NCBI GenBank assembly: GCA_039815375.1 | Contig: JBCBZJ010000002.1 | Location: 207,920 to 271,919 of the forward strand | Length of the DNA: 64,000 nt | Source of the DNA: Verrucomicrobiota bacterium | GTDB lineage: Bacteria > Verrucomicrobiota > Verrucomicrobiia > Opitutales > Coraliomargaritaceae | Reading direction: 5' to 3' | In this document: piece by piece, positions 5,621 through 34,451 of the stretch | Layout of the letters: every line of letters begins with the position of its first letter | How positions within the stretch are numbered: position 1 is the first letter of the stretch | Made by a program: the position numbers and the translations under genes | Notes under the pieces: model-generated | Databases searched by the model: none | Told to the model about the DNA's origin: nothing | Seen by the model: the letters and a program-made list of their open reading frames with translations, nothing else

Positions 5621-6916
5621 ATGGCCGAAAATATTAACTTACAGCTCCAGCAACACCGCGATGCCATCGACTCGATCGATAATCAGGTTGTTGATCTCCT
5701 GAATCAACGCGTCCAGCAGGATGGCGGCCGCAGCGAGGAAGAGGTTCTCGAGAAAGTTGCCCGGATGAACAATGGGCCACTTTCTGATGAGAGCCTCCAA
5801 GCAATCTATACCTCGTTGATGGTTGCAGGTATGGCGTTGACAGCAGAAGCCCGAGACCCGGATGAAGTGGATCAATCAGATCTGAAGATTATCAGTTTGC
5901 TCAGCCAGCGGGTGAAGGAGGCAGGTGCTATTGGGAAGATTAAACATGCCAACGGTGCAGATTACTACGATCCAACGCGCGAGGCCATTGTCATGGCTAA
6001 GGTCAAGGGGTTGAATACGGGTCCGATCAGCGACGCGACGATCCAGTCCGTTTATCGTGAGGTTATTTCCGGGTCTATTTCTTTGGAGAAGAAACTTGTA
6101 ATCGGCTACCTCGGACCCGAAGCGACCTACACACATCAGGCTGCTATCCGAAATTTCGGTGTGAGTCTGGATTATCGTGCAATCAAAACGATACCAGATG
6201 TTTTTGCTGAGGTTGAGAGTGGTAAAGCGGATTATGGTGTCATTCCGATTGAAAACTCTACAGAAGGAGCCGTTTTCCACTCTATGGATATGCTGGTCGA
6301 GTCCGAGCTGCATATTTGTTCCCAGGTCTATTTGCCGATTGAGCATTGTTTGATTTCGCATTCGCCACTCGATGCAATCAAGGAGGTCTGCTCCAAGGAT
6401 CAGGCGATCGGTCAATGCCGCGATTGGCTGCATGCAAATCTTTCAGATGTCGCCAGCAGGGACGTGGTCAGCACTGCCGAAGCCGTTCGATTGGCGAGCA
6501 AAGATCCCTCGCTCGCGGCGATCGCTAGTTCACTTTCCGCGCAGTATTATGGCGTGCCTATCGTTGAACGGGGGATTCAGGATCGAAATGACAACGTCAC
6601 GCGCTTTCTTGTGATTGGCAAAACGCGGGCGAAACCCCTTTGTCAGGGGCTTGATAAAACGAGCTTGGTAATCTCTCTTAAGGACCAACCAGGTGCGCTG
6701 GAGAAAACGCTCCGTCCATTCGCTTCTCGCAGTCTAAACCTAAGTAAAATCGAGTCACGGCCGAGCCGGAAGAAGGCCTGGGACTATCTCTTTTTCATCG
6801 ATTTTATCGGGCACTATGAAGACGCTGTGGTGCAGGATGCGTTGAAGGAGCTCCGTGAGCACTGCGAGTTCGTCAAATGGCTGGGTAGCTATCCGAATTT
6901 GCCGCGCGGCGACTAG
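5621..6916 (+). CDS. pheA: chorismate mutase/prephenate dehydratase (P-protein) with tandem AroQ-like N-terminal repeats
   Basis: YLGPEATYT, PIENSTEG, NVTRFLVI, ACT domain (NLSKIESRPS, LGSYP); two AroQ-like segments at the N-terminus. Confidence 0.93.
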   Translation: MAENINLQLQQHRDAIDSIDNQVVDLLNQRVQQDGGRSEEEVLEKVARMNNGPLSDESLQAIYTSLMVAGMALTAEARDPDEVDQSDLKIISLLSQRVKEAGAIGKIKHANGADYYDPTREAIVMAKVKGLNTGPISDATIQSVYREVISGSISLEKKLVIGYLGPEATYTHQAAIRNFGVSLDYRAIKTIPDVFAEVESGKADYGVIPIENSTEGAVFHSMDMLVESELHICSQVYLPIEHCLISHSPLDAIKEVCSKDQAIGQCRDWLHANLSDVASRDVVSTAEAVRLASKDPSLAAIASSLSAQYYGVPIVERGIQDRNDNVTRFLVIGKTRAKPLCQGLDKTSLVISLKDQPGALEKTLRPFASRSLNLSKIESRPSRKKAWDYLFFIDFIGHYEDAVVQDALKELREHCEFVKWLGSYPNLPRGD

Positions 6917-6957: not shown

Positions 6958-8028
6958 CTAAGCGGCTGGGGTGGGGGCTCTTGAATCCTGACGATCCAGC
7001 TCCCTGTTCATCAGTTGGTGGAATCCCTTAGGATAAAAAGCAAGCAGACTGAGCAGAGGGTAACCGAGCGGCAGACGGTAGCTATCCCGATGTGAACGTA
7101 GATAGATATATTCATTGCCTGCATTCAAATGGTGGTCTGCATGGCGCTGCACCATAAAGGTTTGGTAGTTGGAAAAACGGTGGTAGGAGTCCCACGAGTG
7201 ATGCGCGGCGACTTTCTCGCTTTCTTCCCGCTTGAGCCCATAATGTTCAAGGTAGAAGGCCGCCTCACTAAAAAGAACCGAGAAAAGCGCTATCGCGGTA
7301 TAAAGTAGAAGGCCGGGGATCCCTCCGAGAGAGAATGCGATGCCAAGCATAAGCACTGGGATGCCGAAGTAACTCAGATAAGGATTCTTCAAGCTGAACC
7401 GTTGGATTTGATGCTTCCGAATCCGTTCGTCGACAATGCGGCAGCTTTCCGCATATGACTTAGGATACGACTCGACGAGATATTTCCAGTAAGACGCATC
7501 GCGTGACGGAGCGTGGTTGTCCTTTTCGGTTGCGACGTGGGCATGATGGTTGCGGATATGAGCAATTGGGAAGTGCCAATAGCCGAAGGCATTAAAAGCA
7601 AATTGCCCGAAGGCGACTTTGGTTTTCTGTTTGCGATGAATGAGCTCATGGCCAGCAGCAGCAAGGACGCCGCCAGCACAGGCAAAGGATACAATCGCAA
7701 CTGTAGTCTCCCACCAGTTCAAAGTGTCAAGAACTGCGATCAGCCACAGCAGGCAGACGAAGAAGAAAACTACATAGGTTAGGGTGGAGTAGGATAGAAC
7801 TTCCTGAAGCTTGGGATGAACCTTCTCCTGCTTGATCGTCAGCATATGTTCCCCGACGAAATGATCGAGCGCTGGAACAACAATGAACATCATCAGAGTC
7901 GGTAGGAGCATCCAGTAGGATCCGCCGATCAGCCCCAGGGCCGCGAGAGCTAGAATGAATTGCGGGAAGAGTCCCCGGATAAGGGCTTCGCGGTTCTGTA
8001 GATCGAATAACTTGATGGTTTCAGGCAT
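6958..8028 (-). CDS. AlkB-family membrane diiron monooxygenase (fatty-acid desaturase superfamily)
   Basis: His boxes HELIH, HIRNHH and QRHADHH plus the AlkB/XylM-type YLEHYGL motif; multiple TM helices. Confidence 0.85.
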   Translation of the reverse strand: MPETIKLFDLQNREALIRGLFPQFILALAALGLIGGSYWMLLPTLMMFIVVPALDHFVGEHMLTIKQEKVHPKLQEVLSYSTLTYVVFFFVCLLWLIAVLDTLNWWETTVAIVSFACAGGVLAAAGHELIHRKQKTKVAFGQFAFNAFGYWHFPIAHIRNHHAHVATEKDNHAPSRDASYWKYLVESYPKSYAESCRIVDERIRKHQIQRFSLKNPYLSYFGIPVLMLGIAFSLGGIPGLLLYTAIALFSVLFSEAAFYLEHYGLKREESEKVAAHHSWDSYHRFSNYQTFMVQRHADHHLNAGNEYIYLRSHRDSYRLPLGYPLLSLLAFYPKGFHQLMNRELDRQDSRAPTPAA

Positions 8029-8038
8029 TTTCCGTTCG

Positions 8039-9226
8039 CTAGAAACGATATCCTAAAGAGAGCGAAAAGGCGGTGCTATCAAGGTCGTAGTCTCCGTTTA
8101 CGGTAGGAAAGTTATTGCCTGATACACGACGGGGGTCAGCAACGGCTTGCTGGAAAGTCAACATCCAGAAAAAATGTTCCAGGTCCTGTCCCACGCCTAT
8201 CGAAAAAAAGTGGCGATCTTCGTCTGGGACAATCGGTAGGAAGTCGTCATCAGGAATCGCGTTTTCGACGAAGGTGTAACCTGCGCTTAGATGCCAACCA
8301 TTCTCGAAGAAGCGGGTGGCGCCGAACTCCCAAATGTATGCAGAGATCCAATTCAATTGATAAGAGGCAGCGGGCACGCCATCAATCGTCAGCTCATTGA
8401 CCCGGTCCCAGTTGGTCCAGTCCAGGTTGAATTCGAAGTTCCACTTCTCGTTTGGCTTATAGGCGTATCCGGCAACAATTGATTCTGGAAAAATAAGATC
8501 GACTTGTGCATCCACTGGGAAGCCCATTGTGAGCAAGCCCTGCGCAGTGCCTTCATATGTAAGTTCCGTTTTGGCCTGATAGTTGAGACCAAAGCTATGC
8601 TGTTCGCTTGGCCTCCAAAGGACAGAAACCGTGTAGCCGAAAGTCTGGTCGTCGCCTTCATACTCCAGTGCGTTGGTAAGAAGCTCGACATCGCTGTCGT
8701 CGAAACTGACGCCAATACCGACTGAAAGCGAGTTATTGATCTGCCAGGAAAGGGTGGGCTGGTATTTGACGTAGGCCAGTTGTCCTTCGTAAGGAACTGC
8801 AACCCCCAATAATCCGGATGCAAAAGATGCATCGCTGCCCCAATCCGTGCCAAGTGCGAAGGGAGCATATGCGCCAAAGCCCACGGCTATCGGCAAATCT
8901 TCGAAGTTGTGTGCAATGTAAAGGCTCGGGATGGGTTGAAACGCATCGTCTATGTCGTCGCTTGCGCCGAAGTCTCCTTCATATTCAAACGTCGCTGAGA
9001 TAGCGAGTAAGTTAGCACGAAATTCCGTGCCTTCAATCTGGATGAGACCGGCGGCGTTGTAGAAAATCGCTGATGCGTTGTCAGCCGTGGCGGTAAATGC
9101 GTTCCCGCGTGCAGTAGCGAACGCGTCGAGATAGGCAAAGCGAGTGGCGGCCGCTTGTAACCCGTAAGGAGGGATCGTGACGAAAAGAAGGCTTAGGGCT
9201 ATGAGGCTTGTACGTAGTGAAATCAT
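8039..9226 (-). CDS. FadL/OmpP1/TodX outer-membrane channel for long-chain hydrophobic molecules
   Basis: Signal peptide, ARGNAFTATADNASAIFYNAAGL hatch motif, C-terminal GYRF. The ATG at 9226 overlaps the upstream stop (ATGA). Confidence 0.9.
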   Translation of the reverse strand: MISLRTSLIALSLLFVTIPPYGLQAAATRFAYLDAFATARGNAFTATADNASAIFYNAAGLIQIEGTEFRANLLAISATFEYEGDFGASDDIDDAFQPIPSLYIAHNFEDLPIAVGFGAYAPFALGTDWGSDASFASGLLGVAVPYEGQLAYVKYQPTLSWQINNSLSVGIGVSFDDSDVELLTNALEYEGDDQTFGYTVSVLWRPSEQHSFGLNYQAKTELTYEGTAQGLLTMGFPVDAQVDLIFPESIVAGYAYKPNEKWNFEFNLDWTNWDRVNELTIDGVPAASYQLNWISAYIWEFGATRFFENGWHLSAGYTFVENAIPDDDFLPIVPDEDRHFFSIGVGQDLEHFFWMLTFQQAVADPRRVSGNNFPTVNGDYDLDSTAFSLSLGYRF

Positions 9227-11253
9227 CTGGTCGAAGGAATCAAAAGTGAAGGGAGTTCGATTTCGACATCCCATTCGTGTTTATCGTCTCTCGGATAGAG
9301 CCGAAGGTAACCTCCATGCTCGGATACGATCTTATTTGCAACGGAAAGGCCCAGCCCTACGCCAGTATAGCGTGTTGTGAAGAATGGCTCGGCGGCTTGT
9401 TCGATTACTGTAGAGCTAAGACCCGAACCGCCGTCTCGTAGTTTAATACGTAGAATACCTTCCTCATCTTCTGTGAGAACAACCTTGATCTCCTGCTTGT
9501 CGGGTGCGGCTTGCATTGAGTTGATAAACAGCTCTTCGATGGCGTAAGTCAGTGCCTCACTATTACCCTTTAGCTGCGAGCTTCTCGACTGATTGTCGAA
9601 AGTGAGCTGCGCACTGGAATTGCCAAGTTGACTACGAGCCCGGTCAAATGCGTCTTCTACAAGTTGCGCAAGCGCAAGTTCATTACTTCCGGCCAGCGAG
9701 GACTGAGCCATGTAGAGCATCTGCTCGCTGAAACGTTTGATGCGGGCAGTCTCCTTGATGATAGAGTTTTTAAGAGAGGCCTGGAAGTTTGGTTGATCGA
9801 TTTTTTTGTCGATTAACTGAGCATGGGTTGAGAGCGGGACCAACGAGTTGCGAATCTCGTGGGCAAAGCGTTCCGCGATTAAGCTGATAAGTTTTTCCTT
9901 TGTGCTATCGACTGCGCTTTGCTTGTTGGCCTCGATCTTTGTGAAATCCTCGACGATGACCATCGTCGGTCGCGGAAGGAGGACGAGCTCGCCCTTCTGG
10001 GTGAAAGGGAATATTGAAACACGGAAGATACCGTCACCTTCCGGACCATCTATTTCGAAGGGCTCGGGCAGTTCACCTTTCTCCACTGCGCGGTGTATCG
10101 GACTGGCAAGCTTATGTGGGAGTTCGGCAAAGTCGACCTGTCTCTTAGTATCCGAATTTTCGATACGCAAGAAACGTCGAGCGGCATCGTTGGTATAGAG
10201 GATCTGAAGGTCTTCACCGCAGACAAGCGCCCCACTTGACATAGAGTGCAGGACATTTTCGATTAGTTGACCATGCTGTGCGAGCTCGCTGTGCAGACGG
10301 CTGTTACGAATCGCGAGTCCAAGTTCTTCCATTAGAACGTAAAGTAGCTCAAGCTCGTCATCAATGAAGCTTCGCCCCGTCACCGGTCCGTTGAGGACTG
10401 CGATTCCAATCGAGCCTTCACGATCGCTGATCGGAATAGCGATATCACAGCCTAGAATTGCAAATTCCTTCTCGGTATTTCCGGCTGACACGCTGAACGG
10501 CGGTGCAGTTTGCCTCTGTCTATGAAGAATACGCGGCCGTTCGCTGAGCTCTTTGCCAATTCCCACATCTCGGCTCAGTTGAAAACAATCAATCAAATCT
10601 GTGGGCAGTCCGAGTGAGGCAATGCATTCGAGATGATTCGTTGTGCTTTTCCGGACGACACTTTGCTTAGCTGAGCTTTCGAGAAAGATACCGATTCGAC
10701 TGAAGCTGATGTGATCTCGAAGCTTGAGAATGAAGTGTTGAGTGAATGCTTTGTAGTCCAGGCTGAAGCTAAGGATGTGCGACAGATCCCGAAGGGTTCG
10801 GAGTGTTGAGGCAGTATCGGCTGTAGTCTTGACTATTGGATATTTTGAACCTTCCGGTGGTTTGGATAGATGGCTCTCCTCGGCGACCGGGTCTTTTTGT
10901 AGAAGGCGTTTCAAGGTCCGAACCGGCACAGGCTCGGCGAAGTAAAGATCGGCACCTTCATCAAAGGCGGTGGTTTCACTGGCAAGGCTGTATTCCGGCA
11001 CGAGAACAATGGTAAAAACATCTTCCCGTGTTTCGCGAATATCGCGAAGATGGCGCTGCATGATTTTCTCACCGCTTTCGGCGTAGATGATTATCATGTC
11101 AAAGGCACCTCGCTTGATTGCAGATTGCGCTTCATTCGGGGAGCGGCGGATTACGATTCTTTGCTCCGGAGCCGAAAAGGCTTCCCGCAGATTCAGCGGG
11201 ATAGAGGCTTCGTTTCTAATGAATAGAAAATGACTCACGTGATCTTTTAACAA
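9223..11253 (-). CDS. cytoplasmic sensor histidine kinase (degenerate REC-GAF-PAS-HisKA-HATPase)
   Basis: H-box FAHEIRNSL, N-box ELFINS, DGGSG, PFFTTR..GVGLGL. No TM helix. The receiver-like N-terminus lacks an obvious phospho-Asp. Confidence 0.85.
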   Translation of the reverse strand: MLKDHVSHFLFIRNEASIPLNLREAFSAPEQRIVIRRSPNEAQSAIKRGAFDMIIIYAESGEKIMQRHLRDIRETREDVFTIVLVPEYSLASETTAFDEGADLYFAEPVPVRTLKRLLQKDPVAEESHLSKPPEGSKYPIVKTTADTASTLRTLRDLSHILSFSLDYKAFTQHFILKLRDHISFSRIGIFLESSAKQSVVRKSTTNHLECIASLGLPTDLIDCFQLSRDVGIGKELSERPRILHRQRQTAPPFSVSAGNTEKEFAILGCDIAIPISDREGSIGIAVLNGPVTGRSFIDDELELLYVLMEELGLAIRNSRLHSELAQHGQLIENVLHSMSSGALVCGEDLQILYTNDAARRFLRIENSDTKRQVDFAELPHKLASPIHRAVEKGELPEPFEIDGPEGDGIFRVSIFPFTQKGELVLLPRPTMVIVEDFTKIEANKQSAVDSTKEKLISLIAERFAHEIRNSLVPLSTHAQLIDKKIDQPNFQASLKNSIIKETARIKRFSEQMLYMAQSSLAGSNELALAQLVEDAFDRARSQLGNSSAQLTFDNQSRSSQLKGNSEALTYAIEELFINSMQAAPDKQEIKVVLTEDEEGILRIKLRDGGSGLSSTVIEQAAEPFFTTRYTGVGLGLSVANKIVSEHGGYLRLYPRDDKHEWDVEIELPSLLIPSTR

Positions 11254-11306
11254 TATGTTCAGCTTTTTTTTAGGATTGCAAAGCTGTTTTTCTCGAAGGT
11301 TCCCTG

Positions 11307-11346
11307 TATGCGACGGACAATGGGTTTAATGGGGATTTATGCGACG
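11307..11346. promoter_or_regulatory. direct repeat TATGCGACG x2 (31-bp period) in divergent promoter region
   Basis: Exact 9-mer at 11307-11315 and 11338-11346. Confidence 0.35.
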
Positions 11347-11418
11347 ATTTATGGCCTGAGAGCTTCACCAATAATAAACGTTGCCAGCCTGATCCGATTC
11401 CAACAAAAAAAATCGGCA

Positions 11419-13083
11419 TTGGATAAACTTAAGGCATCTTCCACACCAGATGTGACCAGTCAACGCGTTACCTTTGAGGGTCCACACGGCATGCAGATCG
11501 TCGCCTACATTGACGAAGGGCCTAAGGAAGATTGGAACGGTAAGTTCATTCTACTGGCCCCTCGCTATGGTGAGTCGAAGAAGAACAACCTCCAATTGAG
11601 CTACGTTCTTGCTTCGAATCACTTCAAAGTGATGCGCTTTGACCATACCAATCACATAGGTGAAAGCGACGGCACGATGGAGTGGTTTACCATTCATGGT
11701 GCTGCCGAGGATATCATTGCCTGTGCCAATCATCTTGACATGTACTATGAGCCTAAGGAGATCGCTTTAGTCTCGTTGAGTCTGTCGTGCCGGAGTGGTT
11801 TGAGGGCCTGTGCGCGCGGTTGCCCAATTTCCCGTTTTGTCAGTGTGGTGGGGATGGTCGATTTGGGAAAGACCCTGAACGCAATCTATGACCGCGACAT
11901 GTTGAAGGCCTACTCGGAAGAGAAATGGGAGAGAGTTGATATTCTGGGATTTGATATCAATGGCGCAAATTTCTACGACAGTCTATTCCGGGAGAATTTG
12001 CAGGATCTTTCCGGAGCAATTGAAGATGCCAAAAAGACGAGTGTGCCACTGCTTCACCTTCACGCAGAGAATGATAAATGGGTGGATAGCAATGACGTCG
12101 AGGAGCTGATATCTCATTGTCCAAAGGGCCAACTCGAATTTGTTTCCGGTGTAGCACATGAGATAAACGAGAATCGTGATGCGTTTGCCAATGTCATTGC
12201 GCGGATCATTGCCTTTTGTGCTGGAGTTGAGAGTGGGCCGGTTCGCCAACCTGAAAAGCGGTGTCTGATGAAGCAGAACAAGGCTGAGCGTGAGGCTCTT
12301 CAGAAGATGTTTTCTTTCAATCAATCGGAGGCGGAATTCTGGGGTGATTATCTAAGCAAATTTGGAATTATTGAAGAGGCAGAATTCTACGTTGAGTATT
12401 TTAAGAACATGTCGGAACTGCTTGGCGCGGTAAGGCCGGGAGATACAGTACTGGATGCAGGCTGTGGTAACGGTTTCTTTGGTCTTAGCCTTTTGCATAG
12501 TGCAGCAAATCAAATAGCACCGGGCGGTCCAATTTACTATTGTGCCTTGGATCTTTCTCATGATGGGCTGGCCACGTCCTATCGTCGTCATGTTAGCGAA
12601 TATTCCCGATTGATGCAGATGAGTTTGCGGGCTTCGGGAATCGGAATGACCTATTCAAGGGTTAATCTTGACGGGAGTGAGCAAGAAGAGGACTACCAGT
12701 TGCATTGTCGTGATGGAAGCTTTTCAAAAATCTGCAGCAGTCTGGTCGTTTCCTATCTTAAAGACCCGAGCTGGTTGTTCCGCGAGATCTTTCGACTGCT
12801 TAAACCCGGAGGTGTTGCAATTGTATCCAGTATGAAACCGGGATGCGACATGACAGTTCTTTACCATGAATCGATCACGCAGAAACACACCTCTAATCGG
12901 GAATCGGGAGGACGCGCGCTGCTCAGTGCAGCGGGAAAGATTAAATTGAAGAAGGACTCGGGTATTTATCATTTTTTTAGTAGAGCTGATCTGCAGAGAG
13001 CCGCATTTGATGCGGGATTCACGGATATTTCTGCGCATAGGAGTTTCGGCAATCAAGCGAATGTTGTCCGCCTAGTTAAGTGA
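11419..13083 (+). CDS. LuxD-like acyl-ACP thioesterase/acyltransferase fused to class I SAM methyltransferase
   Basis: N-half follows LuxD: RFDHTNHIGESDG..FT, SLSLS nucleophile, VGMVDL..TL, AENDKWV, GVAHEINEN. C-half has VLDAGCGNG, SLVVSYL and RLLKPGG. Start uncertain (TTG 11419 or GTG 11452; track gives 11308). Confidence 0.8.
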   Translation: MDKLKASSTPDVTSQRVTFEGPHGMQIVAYIDEGPKEDWNGKFILLAPRYGESKKNNLQLSYVLASNHFKVMRFDHTNHIGESDGTMEWFTIHGAAEDIIACANHLDMYYEPKEIALVSLSLSCRSGLRACARGCPISRFVSVVGMVDLGKTLNAIYDRDMLKAYSEEKWERVDILGFDINGANFYDSLFRENLQDLSGAIEDAKKTSVPLLHLHAENDKWVDSNDVEELISHCPKGQLEFVSGVAHEINENRDAFANVIARIIAFCAGVESGPVRQPEKRCLMKQNKAEREALQKMFSFNQSEAEFWGDYLSKFGIIEEAEFYVEYFKNMSELLGAVRPGDTVLDAGCGNGFFGLSLLHSAANQIAPGGPIYYCALDLSHDGLATSYRRHVSEYSRLMQMSLRASGIGMTYSRVNLDGSEQEEDYQLHCRDGSFSKICSSLVVSYLKDPSWLFREIFRLLKPGGVAIVSSMKPGCDMTVLYHESITQKHTSNRESGGRALLSAAGKIKLKKDSGIYHFFSRADLQRAAFDAGFTDISAHRSFGNQANVVRLVK

Positions 13084-15206
13084 ATACTTATTTAACTATA
13101 TCCTCATTAGTTAATACATTTTCAGGGCTACTTTTACTAAGTCTCCTATTTTCTTCGCGTGGAATCGACCGAGTAAAGTCGCGTTTCATACTGCTCACAA
13201 TCAGTGTAATCGGCTGGTCTTTTTCTTATTTCCTCTGGCGTATTTCGGACTCCGCCACACTTGCGCTTTTATATTGTCAATTTCTCACAGTCTTCTCGAT
13301 CTTTTCGCCGATTACCTTCCTTGATTTTTGCTTGGAGCTCGTCGGCTTGCGTCGGCGGATGCCAGTCTTTCTTGGATATCTGCTTTGCCTGGTGGTCGCT
13401 CTTATGGTCGCAGCCGGATATGTCGTTGAAGGTGTCGAATCTAAATACGGACATGTATTTTGGCCTGTGGCCGGTGAACTGTTTTACGTCTACATCATCT
13501 GCTTTGTACTTACGGTCGCTTTAAGTTGCGCCGTTTTGTTTTACGGCACGAAAAAGCACATTGGGCGACGTGCTTCAGACTGCACTTTTGTATTCTGCAC
13601 CGGGTTGATTGGTTTTCTTGGAGCAGCGACCAATTTTCCACTTTGGGTCGATATCCCAATGCAGCCCTTCGGTAATATCCTCGTTGCTGTCTATCTCGTG
13701 ACGATCGGACACGGATTATACAGTCAGCGGATTTCCGGTATCAGCACCGATGTGTATAAAGCCTTCGTTGGTATTTTTTTGAACGCTTCAGCGACCTTGT
13801 TCTATCTGATCCTGGTGGCGCTCTACCGCACCTTGATTGAAGAACCGATGGCAAGTGACGAATTTTGGTTCCATGGGGTCTTTGCGTTTTCTGCCAGTGC
13901 CTTAGTCTTTTGGGGTGTCCCGAAATTGAAAGTTCTAAGCGAGCATATTGTGGAAGGGGTGTTTCGTCGGGAGATCAATACTGCCCTTGCAGAGCTGCAG
14001 GCCCTCCCAACCGAGCTTTCGGAGCTTGGCGAGATTGATGCAATTGCTCAGGTCACCGCCGACACAATAAAGTCTTCACTCGGTGTCTCCGGTGTAGCCG
14101 TGTATCATAATGACGAATTTTCCAGCGAGTTTCGCTGTATCTATTCGAGTGGATCCTTCTCCAGAGATGTAAATGGCTACAAGATTTTAACCACGAATCC
14201 AGTTGTCGAGAGATTGAGTCTAAGGCCGGAGTGCCTTGTTCTGAATCACGTCGCTGATGACTATCGAGAAGCTTTTTATAAGGCACTCGTTTTGCTAAAG
14301 AACGACCTTGGGCTGACAGTTGTGGTGCCTATTTTCGCGAGCCATCAAATTTATGGCCTCATCTTTTTGGGTGGGACAGATCAGCCACGCCCATGGTCGG
14401 AGGAGGAAATTGCTACGCTTTTTAACATTGCCGCACAGATAGGATTAAACATGCGAGCTCGTGACTTTGAGCGACGTTCCAGTGAGATTGATAAGCTGGT
14501 CGCTCTGGGCACGATGGCTGCAGGACTCTCTCATGAGATTCGTAATCCATTGGTATCGATACAGACCTTTGCATCTCTGCTCAAGAAAGGGAAAAGTGTT
14601 GAAAAGCTTCCGGACGATTTTCGCGAAGTCTTGGTGCGTGATGTGAAGCGAATCGAGAGTATCGTTGATGGCGTAGCCTCATACTCCAAAAACCAAAAAG
14701 GGCGAAAAGCACCGATTGATATACGCGAAGTAGTCGAATCCAGTTTAAGGATTTACGAACAAGCTGCTGATGCTCAAGGGATTGAATGGAAGCTGACGTT
14801 ACCCCGAGAGGGTGAGGCCATCGTTATGGCGAATTTTGATCAGATGGTGCAGGTGTTCAATAATCTGATTGAAAATGCGATTCAGGCGCTCGCTGTTCGC
14901 GCAAAAGGTGAAATTGAGATTGATTTAGGGTTACGAAATCTCAGTAAACAGGGCTCTCGACGATGGGTTGAAATTTCTATCGCGGACAATGGTGACGGGG
15001 TTCCTGATTCGATTATCGACCGCATTTTTGATCCCTTCATGACGTCGAAGGATACGGGTAGCCGTGACGAAAAGCAGGGCATGGGTCTTGGGTTGGCCAT
15101 TTCGAAACGGATTATCGAGAACCATGATGGGGCAATCTCCGTATCAAATTTTCCTGGTGGCGGTGCAAAATTTGTTGTCTCGCTGAGGCTTTTTGATTCG
15201 AAGTAG
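13080..15206 (+). CDS. membrane sensor histidine kinase (HisKA_7TM-like multi-TM N-terminus, GAF, HisKA, HATPase)
   Basis: About 280 aa of hydrophobic helices, a GAF-like segment, LGTMAAGLSHEIRNPL, NLIENA, DNGDG and GMGLGLAI. GTG start overlaps the upstream TGA. Confidence 0.92.
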   Translation: MNTYLTISSLVNTFSGLLLLSLLFSSRGIDRVKSRFILLTISVIGWSFSYFLWRISDSATLALLYCQFLTVFSIFSPITFLDFCLELVGLRRRMPVFLGYLLCLVVALMVAAGYVVEGVESKYGHVFWPVAGELFYVYIICFVLTVALSCAVLFYGTKKHIGRRASDCTFVFCTGLIGFLGAATNFPLWVDIPMQPFGNILVAVYLVTIGHGLYSQRISGISTDVYKAFVGIFLNASATLFYLILVALYRTLIEEPMASDEFWFHGVFAFSASALVFWGVPKLKVLSEHIVEGVFRREINTALAELQALPTELSELGEIDAIAQVTADTIKSSLGVSGVAVYHNDEFSSEFRCIYSSGSFSRDVNGYKILTTNPVVERLSLRPECLVLNHVADDYREAFYKALVLLKNDLGLTVVVPIFASHQIYGLIFLGGTDQPRPWSEEEIATLFNIAAQIGLNMRARDFERRSSEIDKLVALGTMAAGLSHEIRNPLVSIQTFASLLKKGKSVEKLPDDFREVLVRDVKRIESIVDGVASYSKNQKGRKAPIDIREVVESSLRIYEQAADAQGIEWKLTLPREGEAIVMANFDQMVQVFNNLIENAIQALAVRAKGEIEIDLGLRNLSKQGSRRWVEISIADNGDGVPDSIIDRIFDPFMTSKDTGSRDEKQGMGLGLAISKRIIENHDGAISVSNFPGGGAKFVVSLRLFDSK

Positions 15207-15211
15207 GTCTG

Positions 15212-16645
15212 ATGTCGGAATTGCCTGAAATCGGAACGGACAATCAGAGTGTAGAACCTGCAGCATTGGCGGGTCATTATCTGAGGGTTTTTGCGAGTGC
15301 AGTTGCTTCGATGTCAGATTTTGAAGGATTTATCGATGCATTGAATGGTCTGGTTCGGGACGATACTTTCTTTCTCGGCACTGCGGAACTCTCGAATGCC
15401 TTCGCTGATGGTGACGAAAAGTTTCCAGACTTTGAGACTCTGGACAGTTCTGAGACAGTTGTCGCGGTTGCAGGTGATGCGGGAAATTTGGGATACCTTA
15501 AATATTCCGGTCGACAGGACAAACAACCCTTTGGAGCAGAAGATATGCACCTCATGGGTTCGATTGCCGGTTTTATCTCAGCTCTTATTTCACAAGCGCA
15601 TGAATTCAGGCAAAAGAGTAAAGCTGACAGGGTACTTCAATTTCTGATCAACCAGTTGCCGTTAGGAGTGATTTGCTTTGATTCTAAGGGAGATGTTTTA
15701 GTCCAGAGTAATTCTGCAGCGAATCTCGTAGGTGATGCGGGAGCTGCGATTCTTGCGGAGTTGATCAGTTCGGAAAAGACTTTCGTCAAGGATCGTGCGA
15801 GACTCCACTTTGAGGCCGGAGGAAAATTGGTTTATGCAGAGGGTCGTCGATTGCAGGTCGAAGAGGGCCTGAAGGTCGTTGCCTTTTTGCTCTATGATAT
15901 GTCGGCTTCGCGCGAGAAGTTGTTAGTTGATCTAGAACGTGAAGCTTACCGAAGCGAGGCTCGCGGCACGTTTCTCACGCTCGCTCTCCTTGAGATGGAC
16001 GACGAAGCAGGCAAGGTGTATCGCACACTCCGCTCTGCCGCCAAAAGCCTTCAGATTGATGTGAGCAAAATACAACCGGTAGATGCCTACAGTTGTGCTT
16101 GTGTATTTGCCGGTAAAAGGATGCGTGCAGTCCGTTTCCTTCTCAGGGCTTTACTGAACAAGGCGGCGACTCCCGTTAAAGTGTCAATTGTTCAACACGA
16201 AGGCGCCACTTCCGAGGACAATCCGGCAGATATGATGCTTGAAGTAGCGAAAGAATCTCTTGCGGTAGCAGAGGTTGCATTGTTACCGAAGCTTCTGGTG
16301 CTGGACCCTTATCCGGCAATCTTCGATGCGCTTACTGTTATTACAAATGAAGTTTGCCAGTTAGACGCGGCACAGTCGGTTGAGTCAGCTTCTACATTGC
16401 TGGCGACAGGTCGCTACGATGGAATTTTTGTCGATTTGGATAGCTATCATTTAGATGAGATTGCAGTGCTTCGTGAAGCGGCAGTTTTAGCCTGCGATGG
16501 TTTCAAGTTTTTGTATTGCAGCCACAAGCAACCCGGTATGGCCCGTCATAGCAATGCATTGAGACCTGAGGAGATTGTTCTCCAAAAACCATTTCATGCT
16601 GATAAGATCGTGGAAATCCTCTCGCTTCAGTTTGATTTAGCTTGA
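15212..16645 (+). CDS. multidomain signalling protein (GAF-like/PAS/degenerate GGDEF-like/C-terminal receiver)
   Basis: PAS-like LINQLPLGVICFD; C-terminal receiver with LLVLD, GIFVDL and LQKPF. The middle domain is tentative. Confidence 0.6.
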   Translation: MSELPEIGTDNQSVEPAALAGHYLRVFASAVASMSDFEGFIDALNGLVRDDTFFLGTAELSNAFADGDEKFPDFETLDSSETVVAVAGDAGNLGYLKYSGRQDKQPFGAEDMHLMGSIAGFISALISQAHEFRQKSKADRVLQFLINQLPLGVICFDSKGDVLVQSNSAANLVGDAGAAILAELISSEKTFVKDRARLHFEAGGKLVYAEGRRLQVEEGLKVVAFLLYDMSASREKLLVDLEREAYRSEARGTFLTLALLEMDDEAGKVYRTLRSAAKSLQIDVSKIQPVDAYSCACVFAGKRMRAVRFLLRALLNKAATPVKVSIVQHEGATSEDNPADMMLEVAKESLAVAEVALLPKLLVLDPYPAIFDALTVITNEVCQLDAAQSVESASTLLATGRYDGIFVDLDSYHLDEIAVLREAAVLACDGFKFLYCSHKQPGMARHSNALRPEEIVLQKPFHADKIVEILSLQFDLA

Positions 16646-16701
16646 GCAAGATTCTCTATTGGTGAGCATTCCTTATCGTTCCTATTTCGGATTCCAACAA
16701 G

Positions 16702-17829
16702 ATGAATATCGCTAAGACTGACATCATGACCAAACGATTACTCGTCGTGGATGATGAGGACGGACCGCGACAATCGCTAAATATGATCTTTAGCGACGAT
16801 TACGATGTTACGATCGCGACTTCCGGAGAAGAGGCGATTCGGTTTTCATCGGAGAGTCCTTTTCATGTCGTCTTGACCGATATACGTATGCGCGGGCTCA
16901 GCGGTATTGATGTTTTAAGGGAGGTTAAAAAACTGGATTCCAATACTGAGGTGATTGTGCTGACGGCATATGAAACACTGGAGACAGCTCGTCAGGCTAT
17001 TAGTCTGGGGGCTTCCGAGTATTTGAAGAAGCCTTTTGATATCGAGCATATCCAGAACGTTGTTGATCGCTGCTTTGAGAACTACCTTTTCACGACACGG
17101 CAAGATGCTGTTATCAGGAAAGACGTTAATGCAGCAAAGACCAACTTCCTCGAAATCGTTAGCCATGAACTGAATACCCCGATGAATGGCATCGTAGGTT
17201 TCATTGAATTACTACAGGAAACCAAGCTTGATACAGATCAGACCGAATATGTTGAAATGATTCATGACTGCAGCCTGAAGTATTTTGAACACGTTCAGGA
17301 TATTTTGACTTATGCGAAGATATCGATGAGTGACTGCGAGATATCACGGAGCTCATTCAATCCAGCTACGATGTTATTGAAGCAAATTTTCGAAGCCGTC
17401 CCGAGAGAGGGTGTCGAGTTAACGCATGAGATTACTGAGAGCATGCCGGAGTTTGTCATGGGTCCCGAGCAAGAAATTAGAATTGTATTAAGAAAGCTGC
17501 TCCTTAACGCGCTCAAATTTACCGAATCGGGGACGATCAATGTGTCTCTCGACGCCGTGCCCCTGGGCGGAGGGCATCACATTTTTACTTTTACTGTAGC
17601 TGACACTGGGCCGGGCATCGAAGAAGGCTTGATCAAGGGTGGAAAAATCTTTGATGCGTTCACACAAGGTGACTCATCGCTTAAACGAGCCCATGAAGGG
17701 CTGGGTCTTGGCCTATCCCTTTGCAAAAGCCTTAGTGATAGACTGAATGGTGAGCTTTCGGTCGAGAGTATAGAGGGGGAGGGGAGCACTTTTTGCTTCC
17801 GTTTCGAACTTTCTGAAGGTAGCTCCTGA
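16702..17829 (+). CDS. hybrid response regulator-histidine kinase (REC-HisKA-HATPase)
   Basis: [46 protein letters not shown]. Confidence 0.92.
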
Positions 17830-17928: not shown

Positions 17929-18318
17929 ATGCAAGTAACGCTTCTTAAGTCCAAGCTCCTTCGTGCCGAAGTTACCGATCGTGCCCTTCATTACGAGGGG
18001 AGTCTAGCGATTGATGCATCACTAATGGAACAGGTCGGGATGCGGCCGTTTGAGAAGATACTTGTTGCCAATATTGCCAATGGGGAGCGCTTTGAGACTT
18101 ATGCAATCGAGGCGCCTAAAGGTTCGCATACGATTTCGCTGAATGGGGCTGCAGCTCACAAGGGCGAGCTGGGCGACCTCTTGGTCATCATTTCATTTGC
18201 GCTGTTTACTGCCGAAGAAGCTGAAACCTGGAAGCCAAGCGTGATGGTTTTGGCCGATGGCAATCAGCGCGTGGTTCGTGTTGATAACCCCAAGGTTAAG
18301 GAAAACGTTTACGTTTAA
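17929..18318 (+). CDS. panD: aspartate 1-decarboxylase
   Basis: LKSKL, YEGSL self-cleavage site, [15 protein letters not shown]. Confidence 0.95.
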
Positions 18319-18720: not shown

Positions 18721-21700
18721 GTGAACCTGAAATCTTTATCCGTTTGGCTAATCTATTTCGCTAGCCTTACCATTCTCTCACCATCGCTCAGCCACGCTGC
18801 GCATCTGGTTGGTTTTGTCTCGGACCGTTCGGCTCCAGAGCTTTTAGGCGGGGCGCACCAGTTCTTGGACAACTATCCAGAGCACCGCATTACGCTTCGC
18901 AGCACCCACCAGTTGGCTGAGTTGACTGATTCTGAACTGAAGCAGTTGTTGGGTGATGCGGATGTTTTCCTCATGGTTGGAATTTTTGGCGAAGAGGTCG
19001 TTCGCCTTGAGTCTTTTTTGCAGAAGAACGAATTGGGCAAAGCATGTCATGTGATTGCGCTCAATGGCGACCGTCGACTGACTCGATTGGCGCGCGTTGA
19101 AGGTAAGCGGATTCTTGAAGATCTCAGTGTTGAAGAGCTTCAGGAAATCCATACTAACGCAGACTCAAGCACAGACGCGGCCACGCTGCTCAAGCAGAAA
19201 CTCAAGGAGTTTCCGGAACAGGCGCACTGGATCGAGGCGCGCGCCTACTGGCAATCGAAGGGGACGGATAATGTGGCAGAAATGTTTGCTTATCTCCTGA
19301 AGCACCGGGCCACAGGTTTAACGCCCAAGCCATTAAGACCGCAGGCGGCAATCCGCTATTTTCAAAAAGGAAATGCTATATCCGCCGCCGACCTTGACCT
19401 GAAAGCGGGCGAATCGGTCATCGCTATTCTCGACCTTAATTCAGGTGACAGTGCGGGTAAACGGGAGACGCTCATCGATATCGAGCAGCAGCTTGCGACA
19501 CATGGAGTCAACTCTTTCAGCGTGCTTGCCCGCTGGGGCAACTCCAGTGTGGAAGCATTAAAGAAATTGGAAGCAACGGCAGCTCCAGCTCGTATCGCTG
19601 GAATCATCGCTTTGCAGGACTTTGTGATCGGCGGTGGGTCAGGACGTGAATCCAGCGTTGAGGCTTTTAAGGCACTCAATGTTCCGGTCTATAAAGCCAT
19701 AAGGATGACAGAGACGACGGAAGCGCAATGGCGGCTTTCCGAGGCCGGCCTTCCCTGGGAAACAATCCACTATCGCATTGCGATGCCTGAGATTCAGGGA
19801 ATCAGCCAGCCAACAGTGGTGGCGGCGACGTCTAGCCCGAGCATCGACTCGATCACGGGCCTGCGCTTGGTGACGACGCTATCGATTGACTCCCAAATCG
19901 AATCCCTCGCTGAGCGTGTTCGTAATTGGAATCGGCTGAAGCACAAAGCGAATAAGGATAAGAAGATTGCTTTGATTTATTACAACCATCCCCCCGGCCG
20001 CCACAACATAGGCGCGGACAATCTCGACGTGCCCGCATCCATCTGGGAGTTACTGCACGACTTAAAGGCCGCTGGCTACGAGACCGGAGAGCTTCCGGAG
20101 TCGCCCGAAGAATTGTTGGATATGCTCCAGGAGAAGGGCGTCAACATGCCGGAAAACTATGAGCAGCTGGCTGCTTATGCGAAGCGCGTGACTACGGTTC
20201 GCGGAGAGCAATATCAGGCATGGTTCTCCGAATTGCCTGAGGTGATTCAACAGGAGATGCAATTCGGCGCTCTCGGCTATTTAGATGGAGTCATTCGACA
20301 GGCAGTAGAATCAAGGGAGATTTCGATCGGACAAAAACATCTGCACGCGGTGATTCACGATCTGGAGCATTTTGTTGAAGTGGTCGATCATCCGGCACGG
20401 GAGCGTGCGCTTGCTCTGATCGAACAGCTCGAGGAGCTCTATCATGAAACGCTGGAAGGAAACCCTCGATGGGATGAAGCTAAGAAGCACATCAAAGCGT
20501 TGGCCGGAATTGGTATCGAAGGCTTGCGCGGATGGGGCGAGGCACCGGGTAAGGTAATGGTGTATGACGGGGAGCTCGTTCTCCCAGGGTTGCGCTTTGG
20601 CAATATCTTCGTTGGGCCGCAGCCGCCGCGCGGTTGGGAAGTCGACGAGGAGATCCTACATGCCAATATGGCCGTTCCGCCGCCCCACCAATATCTGGCG
20701 CTGTATCTCTGGTTGAAGCGTGAGTTCGAGGCGGATGCACTGGTGCACTTGGGGCGTCACTCGACCTACGAGTTTTTGCCACGGCATCGAACTGGCCTTT
20801 CCGAGGTGGACTACCCTTCGATCATCGCCGGCAATCTTCCGGGGGTGTATCCTTACATCGTCGATGGTGTGGGAGAGGGGATCCAAGCCAAACGGCGTGG
20901 ACTGGCTGTTATGGTCGATCACTTAACTCCACCGCTTCAGACCACACCACTCTATGACGAGCTGCTGCAACTCAGGCAACTGGTCGAGAGCTACGAAGCC
21001 AATGAGCAGGCCGGTAATGCGCCGACTCAGTTACGCACTGGAAAGGCGATCCGCGAAAAAGTCGAGGTGCTGAACATGCAGGACGAGCTGATTAACGAGC
21101 TTAAGAAAGAACACCATCTTGACGATCTGACCTTTGCGAATGTCGACGATGACTTACTGATCCATGAGATCGGGCACCATTTGACTGAGATGCAGGAGCG
21201 CTTCATGCCGCTAGGCTTGCATATTTTCGGGCGTGATTGGAGTCAGGAGGCTATCGAGACCATGCTCAACTCCATCAATCCGAAAGGGGTGCCGGAAAGC
21301 ACTCGCGAGGCTTTGACGGTATCGCCATCCCACGAAAAACGCGCCTTCCTAAATGCTTTGGATGCGGGCTACGTCCTTCCAGGTAAGGGCAACGACCCGG
21401 TTCGCACGCCTGAGGCGATGCCAACAGGCCGGAACTTCCATGCACTGGACAGCGGGTTGCTTCCCACGAAGATAGCCTGGGATATTGCAGTTCAATTGAA
21501 CGAGCAGGAGAAGGCAAAAGGTAATGATCCCAACGAAAGTGCTGCGATTGTGCTCTGGGCATCGGATGTCGTGCGCGACGAAGGCGTGATGATTGCCTTG
21601 GGCATGGAGATGTTGGGCATTCAACCACAGTGGAATAGCCGCGGCATAGTTAAGGGTCTCGAGCGCCTTCCGCTGGACCCGGACTCTCGACCTTACCGGC

Positions 21701-23052
21701 TCGATACGGTCTTCACAATTTCCGGTCTGTTTCGCGATCTTTACGGGCAACAAGTTGTCTGGCTCGACACCGCGGTTCTGATGGCATTGGACGGCTCTAG
21801 TAAGACGATCGCTGAAAAACACCCCGGCTTGAAAGCGGCACTGGAGGCAGCGCTTGAGCCGCTCGGCGAGGCCCGAGAGCCCGGCAGCGAATCGCTGGAG
21901 CACAACATTGTCGCGGCGCACTGGGCTCAATCCACGCTTGAACAGATTGAAGGTGACACCCCTCCAGGTATGGCTGGAACTCAAGCGATCCTCCGTTTGT
22001 TTGGTGCCCCTCCCGGTGGTTACGGCGCAGGCGTCAATCGTATTGTCGAGCGCTCGGGAGCGTGGGAAACACGTGCTGAAGTTGCGGAGGTGTATTTGCG
22101 CGGAATGGGGCACACTTATGGTATCGAAAAAGAAGGTGCGCCTGCCCACAGCAGCTTTGAGCGACAGTTGGCAAAGGTTGGTCAGACCTATTTGGGGCGA
22201 GCCAGCAACCTCTACGGCCTGATGGATAACAATGATGCATTTGACTACCTCGGTGGCCTGAGCATGGCGATCGAGAGCATTCAGGGCGAAGCTCCGAACA
22301 ACAATGTCATTCACCATAACAATGTGAACGATCTGAAGATAGAACCTCTGGAGCGTGCTTTGCTTGGCGAGCTACGTGGCCGATTCTTGAACCCCGCTTG
22401 GCTAAAGCCGCTTATGGCTCACGACTATGCAGGTGCGCGAACCATGGGCAGCGAGTTTTTAGAATACCTTTGGGGCTGGCAGGTGACGAATCCTGAGATC
22501 GTGAAAACCTGGGTTTGGGACGAGGTGCATGACGTTTACTTCAAAGATCGTCATGGTCTCGGACTCGATGAATTTCTTGAAGAGGGTAATAATGTGCACG
22601 TTAAGATCAACATGCAGGCGATTCTTCTGGTGGCTGCAGATAAAGCGTTCTGGGAGGCCGATCCTGAAACCCTGCAGCAGTTGAGTCAGGAGTTCACGGA
22701 GCTCGTCATAGAGCACGGCCTGCCTGGGAGTGGTCACACGCGCCCTGATCATCCGATCTTCAAATCAATCATGCCTCGCTTGAGCGAGGATATGCAGGCA
22801 GCACTACAGGCCGTTCTCGATAAGGCGTTGCCTCCGGAAAGCTCTGAAGAAGAGGCAGAAGTTCCGTCTACCTTGGCGGAAATTGATACGGTCGATGCTC
22901 CTACCCGAACAGAGGCCGCTCAGCCGCAGGAACAGACGACTGAGGCGTCGATCGATCAGATGACAATTCGGGTTGCGATCGGAGTTCTTGTTGCGCTGTT
23001 CTTGTTTGGTGCTCTTCGTGGAAGGTTCCTATCTGGAATTAAGGGAAAATGA
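18721..23052 (+). CDS. CobN/Mg-chelatase H-family protein, exported and membrane-anchored (BtuS/HmuS-like)
   Basis: [47 protein letters not shown] motifs; N-terminal signal-like segment and C-terminal TM helix. Confidence 0.9.
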
Positions 23053-23480
23053 TGTTACCGGAATTTTTACACCTTATCGTCTCGTGGCTATTGGTCCCGG
23101 TTATCAGCTGCTTGCTTATTGCGGCAGCTTTCTCGGTTTATGAGTTGGGGCTTGCGTTTGGTGAACGCTTTGGAGGTCTGAGGCAGTGGCATGAACTCAG
23201 TATCGAAAAGATTGAGAAGATGGCGCGACGCCGCATTGACCGGGCAGACCTGATTGCGCGGCTTGCACCGATGCTGGGCTTGATGGGAACACTGATCCCA
23301 CTTGGGCCGGGTCTCGCCGCTCTGGGGCGTGGCGATGTAGCCGTGCTCGCATCTGCTGTGACTGTGGCATTCGATACGACAGTCATCGGGTTGTTTGCCG
23401 GAGGCATTGGCTTTCTCTTGTCCCGCCTACGGCGGCGCTGGTATGATAAAATCCTCGATGAAAAGGAGAACCGGTTGTGA
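23049..23480 (+). CDS. MotA/TolQ/ExbB proton-channel family protein
   Basis: [14 protein letters not shown] and AFDTT..GL motifs. Confidence 0.88.
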
Positions 23481-23773
23481 GGCGGCGTAACTGGGAAAAA
23501 AGCCGTTTTGAGACCGACGCTGTTGATCCCATGGATTCGATGGCCAACCTGGTTGATGTTATGCTGGTCTTTGCCTGTGGCCTGATTGCGGCGCTGGTCG
23601 TCAGCCAGGGAGGACTGAAGCAGAAAGAGGCTTTGCAACCTAAGGAGATCGAGAAGAAACAGGAACTCCCCGAGATGCCGCAAGGTGTCGGAGCAGGTGG
23701 CGAGGGCTACGAACCGGTGGGGCAGGTCTACAAAGACCCGACAACGGGGAAGCTCATTCTAATCAGCGAGTAG
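23477..23773 (+). CDS. DUF2149 family (ExbD-like single-TM) protein
   Basis: [20 protein letters not shown] and G.VYKDP.TGKL motifs. Confidence 0.8.
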
Positions 23774-23918
23774 CCTGCGTTGCCTTCTCTTCAGCGGTTC
23801 CTTCTATTAGTTTTCAAATTTTTAATTTGTATTGACATTAATTAATCTTATCAAAAAAATTACTTATTAGCGATTAAAGCCAAGTGCTTTGCGCTGAATG
23901 TTCTTATCCAGATTCTAT

Positions 23919-24091
23919 GCGATGCAGACTCAGGAAACGCCGTGAAAACCGGCGACAGTCGCGCTACGGTAACAAGTCACAAATCCGCGTCTAGAGCTGG
24001 CAGCTCTAGACACTCTACAGTCGTGGAATAGGAAAAGGCTGCCTCTTCGAAGAGGCTACAAACTTGGAGTCCGGCCACTGACTGCATTCGC
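23919..24091 (+). ncRNA. cobalamin riboswitch, extended form
   Basis: AGGAAACGCCGTGAAAACCGGCGACAGTCGCGCTACGGTAA ... GGAAAAGG ... GAGTCCGGCCACTG; closing stem GCGATGCAG/CTGCATTCGC; TTGACA at 23832; lies upstream of btuB. Confidence 0.8.
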
Positions 24092-24268
24092 CCGTCTCGG
24101 AAATTCCTTTTCCAACATCCTGTCGCAGAAGCAGGAGTCATGACTAGTATTCATTCACTAGGTTCATCAGTATTCAATTAGCACTGTCTAATCGCTGATC
24201 GGACCTCGAGTAGTGTTGTTTGAGTCCGTTTTGGCCTTCTTTTGCGCAGGCCGAAATCAAACAACAAC

Positions 24269-34445: not shown

Positions 34446-34451
34446 ATCTGT

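Follow-up and report, generated by a model that had tools for sequence, protein, structure and literature searches.

The 64,000-nucleotide (nt) stretch of DNA analysed here (hereafter "the window") originates from a Verrucomicrobiota bacterium of the family Coraliomargaritaceae (GenBank assembly GCA_039815375.1, contig JBCBZJ010000002.1, positions 207,920 to 271,919). Between pheA and panD, it carries a block of seven genes arranged in two divergent arms, as evident from the list of open reading frames (ORFs) and from family scans. In the centre of the block, a gene for a LuxD-type thioesterase fused to a class I S-adenosylmethionine (SAM) methyltransferase—the candidate signal synthase—overlaps with that of a HisKA_7TM sensor kinase, the candidate cognate receptor. 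Together, they constitute a synthase–receptor cassette that is real, conserved and apparently undescribed, and whose function we infer. The individual features are:

5621–6916: pheA, flanking the left arm
6958–8028, minus strand: AlkB-like oxygenase, a divergent AlkB-family membrane di-iron oxygenase/desaturase whose His boxes align with solved AlkB
8039–9226, minus strand: FadL/TodX-family outer-membrane channel with an N-terminal hydrophobic leader
9223–11253, minus strand: left soluble kinase, pseudo-REC-GAF-PAS-HisKA-HATPase; probable start at 11238
11254–11418, no strand: intergenic region between the divergent arms, about 165–180 nt
11419–13083, plus strand: LuxD-type::class I SAM methyltransferase fusion, candidate signal synthase; ORF open from 11308
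13080–15206, plus strand: sensor kinase HisKA_7TM-GAF-HisKA-HATPase, candidate cognate receptor; phospho-His H485
15212–16645, plus strand: soluble GAF-PAS-degenerate GGDEF-like-REC protein of 477 amino acids (aa)
16702–17829, plus strand: REC-HisKA-HATPase hybrid with intact Asp and His
17929–18318: panD, flanking the right arm

An initial annotation made from the sequence alone had described this two-arm gene set with its domains and two gene overlaps, all of which are real: the synthase stop and the 7TM kinase start share a GTGA at 13080–13083, and the end of the left kinase gene (9223) and the fadL start (9226) share an ATGA. The AlkB-like gene is co-oriented with fadL and follows it after 10 nt. 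The fusion most likely starts at TTG 11419, yielding 554 aa in agreement with the public gene call and with the N-termini of homologs; ATG 11308 is disfavoured by homolog lengths. For the left kinase, GTG 11238 is probably the start, with homologs aligning from residue 6. A promoter scan returned 3 promoter-like sites against 12.1 expected from shuffles, with terminators at chance level; since the intergenic region between the arms contains one weak sigma-70-like match and fewer sites than shuffles, no promoter is claimed. An Rfam scan of the window gave no match.

Candidate synthase and candidate receptor

The fusion protein is composed of a LuxD-type thioesterase/acyltransferase domain (approximately residues 8–270; LuxD/Acyl_transf_2 PF02273, E 7e-24, 85 bits against a cut-off of 20.3) and a class I SAM methyltransferase domain (approximately residues 275–554). 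It contains a Ser-Asp-His triad, S121 (11779–11781), D219 (12073–12075) and H247 (12157–12159), and a SAM motif, D346–G352 (12454–12474); 79 of the 81 aligned rows have both, and the remaining two are truncated. The triad aligns onto S114/D211/H241 of Vibrio harveyi LuxD (1THT), which we take to be the catalytic triad of that enzyme. The thioesterase domain is closest to V. harveyi LuxD in sequence, with the acyl-binding cap region aligned, as well as in predicted structure: the AlphaFold model of the fusion (pLDDT 87) has 1THT as its best structural match, in Foldseek as well as by Z score (Z 30.2, root-mean-square deviation 3.0 Å, 275 residues aligned), followed by a match with Z 27.9. The methyltransferase domain, modelled alone (pLDDT 88.7), adopts a plain class I fold. 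It has near-tied matches to enzymes of different chemistries, namely CmoA (Z 20.4), BelI (20.0) and OxaG (19.9), along with an S- and a C-methyltransferase (Z 19.3–19.4).

In a profile search, 552 representatives of the didomain were retrieved at E up to 1e-30, and by sequence the LuxD::methyltransferase didomain is a family of its own. Full-length members, where named, bear names from Omnitrophota, Nitrospira/Nitrospirales and candidate division WOR-1. Distant synthases are often fused to PilZ, REC, PAS or START domains (as seen in a scan of 43 of the 147 newly listed proteins). The triad is intact in 100/123 near-complete representatives and in all 29 proteins of up to 620 aa. Among the versions of more than 1000 aa, REC-PAS-PilZ-fused proteins with names from Nitrospirota (P0198, P0202, P0223, P0237, P0239 and others) are often devoid of the thioesterase triad but have kept the methyltransferase, possibly as pseudo-enzyme lipid-binding domains. 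In the plasmid collection, the sole match was luxD on a cloning plasmid.

The kinase downstream of the fusion has an N-terminal HisKA_7TM domain (PF16927; 30.0 bits against a cut-off of 28.6; Atlas 0.95), for which we know of no ligand, and a phospho-His, H485, that is invariant in the 7TM kinase alignment. Its coupling to the synthase was followed in two sets of loci (numbered with L; genomes with G). A GTDB scan with two Opitutales-biased patterns confirmed 84 relatives, of which 80, all labelled Verrucomicrobiota, were kept; per-gene counts take in only loci with enough flank. A metagenome scan with 30 distant homologs as queries confirmed 196 stretches, of which 80 loci were kept. The 7TM kinase lies directly downstream of the synthase in all 77 GTDB loci with at least 500 nt of flank, in 74 of them with an in-frame 4-nt overlap of stop and start (ATGA/GTGA); fadL is found in 54/65 informative loci. 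The neighbourhood search for the fusion next to HisKA_7TM kinases and fadL, proposed in the initial annotation, thus returned such neighbourhoods, and the gene set is non-random, its order—alkB excepted—being conserved in dozens of genomes.

At 60 of the 62 distant metagenome loci with at least 500 nt of flank, an orthologous 7TM kinase occurs at most 2.5 kb downstream of the synthase, and residues W46, G132, G181 and P196 of the 7TM domain are kept in 58–60 of 60 distant receptors. Genes for a sigma-54 regulator and a REC-HD protein frequently come next after the kinase there. Both these regulators and the PilZ, REC, PAS and START fusions are as expected for a regulated signal output. Since the other genes of the Opitutales block were not found at the distant loci (fadL, alkB and the 477-aa protein with window sequences or profile; fadL by BLASTP near none of the 80), the minimal unit is enzyme plus receptor. 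In PMC5847659, HisKA_7TM is listed only as a sensor domain.

Serine loss in the thioesterase provides an internal control. It was followed in those metagenome loci for which the triad region is complete and a receptor lies downstream, leaving 59 rows after removal of truncated or split ones. An intact triad is accompanied by a directly adjacent receptor in 46/47 loci. Where the serine is replaced by Asn, an extra enzyme is inserted ahead of a weaker-scoring, more divergent 7TM kinase in 10/10 loci: FabH-like plus PilZ in four, haem-oxygenase-like in three, acyl-ACP-reductase-like in two (ACP, acyl carrier protein), and FabF-like plus PilZ in one. Three of these four enzyme families are acyl-thioester enzymes. 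From these sequence contexts, the receptor appears to track the lipid-processing enzyme encoded ahead of it, whichever that is.

Tandem arrays were also encountered (L153:8870-19208, L160, L184:528-11483, L181), in which each lipid enzyme—acyl-ACP-reductase-like, haem-oxygenase-like, B12 radical SAM, acyltransferase or ICMT-like—has its own HisKA_7TM kinase following, some of these kinases bearing two 7TM domains. Such arrays suggest several parallel lipid signals per genome.

Joint exchange of synthase and receptor

The synthase is present in 23/100 other genomes of the window's family and in 11/300 genomes across the phylum, and relatives carry Opitutales names. Two records titled "uncultured Akkermansia" (L037, L097) contain an Opitutaceae-type block; their titles may be mislabels.

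When the window is compared with 18 loci of its family type, two types of the cassette can be distinguished: type A, with 13 members including the window, and type B, with six. Their thioesterases share 31–41% identity and their 7TM domains 23–31%, and the cytoplasmic GAF domain and linker of the kinase are the regions most different between the types (7–23%). No A/B split is seen in fadL, the left kinase or the REC-kinase. In quick trees (rows less than 60% filled omitted; six outgroup loci), each type forms one clade with support 100 and one change for the synthase and for the 7TM domain; the left-kinase tree requires five type changes, and a type-B clade is rejected (approximately unbiased test, p 1.5e-57).

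The exchange is traceable at the DNA level. Over the 2159 nt that lead up to the synthase start, L077 (type B) and L032 (type A) share 95.8% identity; across synthase and kinase, similarity is reduced to a single 110-nt patch of 72%, and just past the GAF domain of the 477-aa gene it returns to 95%. In relatives, blastn breakpoints place the left boundary of the swapped unit at the synthase start, and the pairs L080/L022 and L045/L023 show the same identity gap with other breakpoints. The genome of L077 (G346) is 98% complete with 0% contamination; type B occurs in a single-contig chromosome (L080) and in an isolate (L076) and is, thus, no assembly artefact. Over 47 complete loci, the partial correlation with synthase identity, controlled for the left kinase, is 0.87 for the 7TM domain and 0.75 for its GAF domain, against 0.28 for the kinase core, 0.21 for the 477-aa protein and 0.00 for FadL; since pairs are related and not independent, these values are descriptive only. 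Enzyme and receptor are exchanged jointly, inside what by sequence is a relay backbone of other history.

In staphylococcal agr and Bacillus comQXP, the response backbone is conserved, while the gene making the signal and the sensor domain are variable and move as a unit. We take the A/B exchange to follow the pattern of these pherotypes, with the difference that agr and comQXP concern peptides in Gram-positive bacteria, whereas here a lipid with enzyme-defined specificity is predicted.

The signalling block was deleted in three family members, in three independent events (L201:12657-14729, L203:5724-7526, L214:3160-4015). Such lineages would be naturally signal-blind and non-producing; fadL is left intact, with a stop, or truncated.

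Relay proteins, FadL and the oxygenase slot

The phospho-His is conserved in all three kinases of the window. The left kinase is present in 71/74 loci; its family carries GAF (33/39), PAS and a weak REC (5/39), and its receiver domain is devoid of the phospho-acceptor Asp. Judged by its tree, it is part of the vertically inherited backbone. A REC-kinase is found on the right or the left arm in 45/47 loci and never on both; in Opitutaceae-labelled loci, a different REC-kinase on the left arm replaces the right-arm hybrid. At one locus (L095:2825-7775), fadL is relocated and lies between two additional REC-kinase hybrids of opposite orientation.

The 477-aa protein is present in 63/63 informative loci. 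The initial annotation had called it a PAS/REC protein; PAS and REC are correct, and the assignment can be refined to GAF-PAS-degenerate GGDEF-like-REC. The window copy has no Pfam match, and among 51 family members a Pfam scan found GAF_2 in 21, REC in 18 and PAS_8 in nine, in agreement with the PDB profile. By Atlas features (0.87, as a lead only) and by a model with a TM score of about 0.7 to GGDEF domains, the middle domain is GGDEF-like. The GG[DE]EF motif is absent, with other sequence in its place in all aligned rows; hence, the protein is likely a non-enzymatic relay or scaffold. The window's own genome (G000, 99.9% complete) gave no match to PF00990, yet has kept this GGDEF-fold pseudo-domain. 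In one genome pair, the GAF domain of the 477-aa protein moves with the swapped unit. The block contains no DNA-binding protein; thus, the final output lies elsewhere.

The window's fadL product matches FadL/Toluene_X at E 1e-41. This FadL type is present in 29/100 family genomes, including 22 of the 23 synthase carriers. In seven family genomes it has no accompanying synthase match, three of which result from block deletion (G475, G463, G460). In G463, fadL bears a stop, and in G460 the deletion spans from within fadL to within the REC-kinase. Among the other FadL-only genomes, the block leaves the contig in G484, two end at contig edges, and G019 has a paralog. By this distribution, FadL is an accessory backbone gene that does not co-vary with the synthase. 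Its proposed role in importing the signal is plausible given its frequent position beside the block; it is weakened by the accessory character of the gene, its absence from the distant loci and the missing co-variation.

The best PDB matches of the AlkB-like protein are two alkane 1-monooxygenases (E 3e-34 and 1e-32), and its His-box segments all align with 8SBB and 8F6T. No alkB was found in the 80 related loci by BLASTP and TBLASTN, not every locus reaching beyond fadL. It was likewise found in 0/100 family genomes and, at 28% identity only, in 2/150 order genomes, where the one match inspected is a 796-aa protein in another context. On these counts, AlkB as a core component was rejected. 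Its closest relatives (62–64% identity) are from Coraliomargarita sp. W4R72/W4R53. The rubredoxin profile PF00301 gave no match in the window's genome, with the control matching in 7/14. By its distribution, the AlkB-like gene is a genome-specific insert in a variable slot beside fadL, outside the system. The earlier claim that the locus modifies or destroys its signal is accordingly weak, and an action of AlkB on the signal appears doubtful. In all four genomes matching better than 1e-150, a cytochrome P450 gene occupies the same slot, convergent with fadL; in G460, one of the genomes with a block deletion, it is interrupted by a stop. That two unrelated oxygenase families share a slot hints at turnover of the signal, though most loci are without either.

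Interpretation, known systems and flanking genes

Taken together, we consider it somewhat probable (roughly 0.55) that the block encodes a quorum-sensing-like circuit in which the fusion makes a diffusible methylated lipid and the 7TM kinase senses it, the pair being swapped within a shared relay backbone. In such a circuit, the LuxD-type domain would release a fatty acid from acyl-ACP, the likely substrate by analogy with LuxD, and the fused SAM domain would methylate it to a diffusible ester, the likely product by analogy with PhcB, the methyltransferase behind the 3-hydroxy fatty-acid methyl-ester signals of Ralstonia. The translationally coupled kinase would bind this product in the membrane, and phosphoryl groups would flow to the receivers of the REC-kinase hybrid and of the GAF-PAS-GGDEF-like-REC protein; a second input would come from the soluble left kinase. 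FadL may ease the passage of the lipid across the outer membrane, and the AlkB-like enzyme, or P450 in some relatives, may oxidise the signal as a dispensable component. Signal binding by the 7TM domain and action between cells are presumed. What the initial annotation proposed as making and sensing of a signal finds its support in the near-invariant enzyme–kinase coupling across distant lineages, the joint exchange and the intact catalytic residues. It is conceivable, and we would rate it clearly below an even chance, that the system belongs to an undescribed multi-phylum lipid-signal family in which HisKA_7TM-GAF kinases each read the product of the preceding acyl-ACP-tailoring enzyme, be it LuxD::methyltransferase, FabH/FabF, acyl-ACP reductase or a haem-oxygenase-like enzyme, with the Opitutales cartridge acting as a pherotype switch traded among near-identical genomes.

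Several observations weigh against the proposed circuit. A carboxyl methyltransferase is not singled out by structure search: many unrelated class I enzymes lie within 1–2 Z and differ in their chemistry, so that carboxyl methylation stays a presumption. Among the best 50 matches listed in the structure and profile searches of the methyltransferase domain, there is no mycobacterial fatty-acid or juvenile-hormone-type carboxyl methyltransferase; kinship with these may exist all the same. The triad is absent in 16/31 didomain homologs of over 1000 aa and intact in 15/31. In the near-identical loci L150 and L151, the receptor adjoins the synthase directly although the triad is broken; in L159, an enzyme is inserted although the triad is intact; and the ten Ser-to-Asn loci are probably one lineage, partly near-duplicates. 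In the complete genome G475, fadL is intact where the rest of the block was lost. Neither a transcription factor nor autoinduction feedback is visible in the block. Finally, direct protein contact or an intracellular ligand would likewise lead to joint inheritance; a complex prediction of the fusion with the GAF region of the kinase (score 0.00) has no weight either way.

The synthase–receptor logic might operate with another chemistry: the LuxD domain would pass the acyl chain to a small acceptor or cyclise a methyl-activated hydroxy acid, and the methyltransferase would act on N, O or C of that product instead of yielding a plain fatty-acid methyl ester. LuxD is an acyltransferase-type serine hydrolase, and BelI and CysG methylate a carboxylate before hydrolase-catalysed β-lactone formation; the structure matches point to no particular methyl acceptor, with BelI ranking second, and the ketosynthases and reductases inserted in distant loci point to varied products. 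However, no acceptor-supplying gene recurs in the Opitutales block, so that substrates must be housekeeping metabolites, and acyl-ACP and SAM are the simplest pair; overall, we regard a different chemistry as unlikely. Rather more unlikely is purely cell-internal sensing, in which the enzyme samples the acyl-ACP pool and passes a short-lived lipid to its own kinase, thereby reporting fatty-acid/SAM status instead of cell density. The translational coupling, the PilZ, REC and PAS control domains on distant homologs, the lack of an exporter gene in the block and the dispensability of FadL are all compatible with it, but it offers little reason for repeated swaps of two divergent types between close relatives, or for an outer-membrane lipid channel adjoining in 54/65 loci.

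That the fusion modifies the kinase itself by methylation/demethylation or acylation, as a CheR/CheB-like pair in one chain, the kinase sensing something else, we consider improbable. Attaching and removing a methyl ester would be within reach of a methyltransferase paired with a hydrolase, and the strong divergence of GAF and linker between the types would suit a contact surface; yet the hydrolase is specifically LuxD-like with its acyl-binding cap region aligned, the membrane domain co-varies most with the enzyme (0.87), and serine loss is accompanied by other lipid enzymes instead of protein-modifying ones. Least probable is a catabolic module with FadL taking up environmental lipids or alkanes for oxidation by AlkB, the hydrolase acting on esters and the kinases serving induction. 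While the co-orientation of fadL and alkB at a distance of 10 nt and the persistence of fadL without the block in G475 would fit, alkB is absent from relatives, rubredoxin was not found in the genome, no beta-oxidation genes recur nearby, and the fused methyltransferase has no place in such a module.

Among known systems, the proposed circuit resembles Phc of Ralstonia in that a methyltransferase, a membrane kinase and a receiver-kinase hybrid follow each other in the same order, as described for Phc in PMC7912708, PMC9102662 and PMC13220807; PhcR has the same architecture as the block's REC-HisKA-HATPase hybrid. Unlike in Phc, a LuxD thioesterase and the methyltransferase form one chain in the block, which encodes additional GAF/PAS kinases and FadL but no PhcA-like regulator. 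A phcBSRQ-like operon with its own polyketide synthase does occur in an Opitutales genome without the LuxD cassette (G019; L208:8468-20000, L216:593-8197), in the order fadL paralog, 2090-aa highly reducing type I polyketide synthase, 465-aa methyltransferase, membrane hybrid kinase and three receiver proteins; the genome of the window yielded no such operon. A Paraburkholderia graminis plasmid (L217:5995-10370) carries a 41% identical methyltransferase with a kinase and two regulators. The cluster of the 465-aa methyltransferase, which we take to be PhcB-like from its architecture, includes proteins of Coraliomargarita algicola and Thalassobacterium maritimum SDUM461003, the latter also carrying the block studied here (L076).

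With the 465-aa enzyme as a stand-in for PhcB, the fusion's methyltransferase shares 16% identity over 129 columns, limited to the Rossmann core; no protein named PhcB is among the 95 matches listed in the profile search of this domain. This points to a synthase outside the PhcB methyltransferase family. When kinases from two phc-like operons are taken as stand-ins for PhcS, the 7TM profile reaches 0.2 bits on them at best. Because relatives have a separate phcBSRQ-like operon whose methyltransferase shares only the core with the fusion, we do not file the block under Phc: it would work like Phc, and homology beyond shared folds was not found in these comparisons.

The diffusible signal factor (DSF) system (RpfF-RpfC-RpfG, RpfB) likewise has an acyl-ACP thioesterase synthase and a multi-pass membrane kinase receptor, and a REC-HD protein resembling RpfG closes the distant loci here. 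According to PMC7912708, RpfF is a thioesterase/enoyl-CoA hydratase, and according to PMC7504960, a DSF response in Salmonella depends on FadL. The block differs by its alpha/beta-hydrolase plus methyltransferase, has no Hpt domain or acyl-CoA ligase in its Opitutales form, and is not filed under DSF either; its synthase is not of the RpfF type, the Pfam, PDB sequence and structure searches giving a LuxD hydrolase and a class I methyltransferase throughout. V. harveyi LuxD shares fold, cap region and Ser-Asp-His triad; it differs by an identity of about 21%, by the fusion and by the missing luxCE/AB neighbours. The LuxD equivalog NF052253 scores 83.2 bits against a cut-off of 420, and no lux genes are in the neighbourhoods. 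PrsK/PrsR of the PEP-CTERM/exosortase A system resembles the block in its membrane domain-GAF-HisKA-HATPase kinase and, at distant loci, in the sigma-54 regulator following the kinase; the difference is that no exosortase gene recurs. Some 7TM kinase homologs have weak N-terminal PrsK similarity (E 5e-9). The 467 N-terminal residues of the window kinase gave no match to PrsK, and TIGR02916 (300-bit cut-off) was not among its 25 best NCBIfam matches, far below cut-off.

The block would represent a known kind of system, a fatty-acid-derived signal read by a histidine kinase, here built from different parts. No LuxD–methyltransferase fusion or gene set of this type is described in the full-text literature searched, although tables or closed papers may mention it; excerpts of two PilZ surveys (10.1101/814665, 10.1101/2020.02.11.943704) contain no mention of such fusions. 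If true, the circuit would constitute an undescribed cell-to-cell language with dialects (types A and B), made from parts non-homologous, beyond folds, to LuxI, RpfF and the tested PhcB-like enzymes, in environmental lineages where searches found no such system, and it would provide a ligand for a sensor domain as widespread as HisKA_7TM. On the multi-phylum reading, this would be the first HisKA_7TM ligand class and a self-recognition system in Verrucomicrobiota and Nitrospirota. Types A and B are present in cultured Coraliomargarita/Thalassobacterium strains, and these natural pairs offer a built-in specificity experiment; furthermore, an acyl-ACP thioesterase and a methyltransferase in one chain would be of use as a biocatalyst for fatty-acid methyl esters.

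Concerning the flanks, a cobalamin-related cluster follows right after panD (window 18721–37026; gene names from ORF reading, no family scan), comprising a CobN/chelatase-like 1443-aa protein, a TonB-dependent receptor, an ABC transporter and cob genes; eight related loci also have a similar TonB receptor after panD. On the other side, the N-terminal extension of pheA resembles a duplicated, degenerate chorismate-mutase segment ahead of the CM_2 domain (match at residues 82–157).

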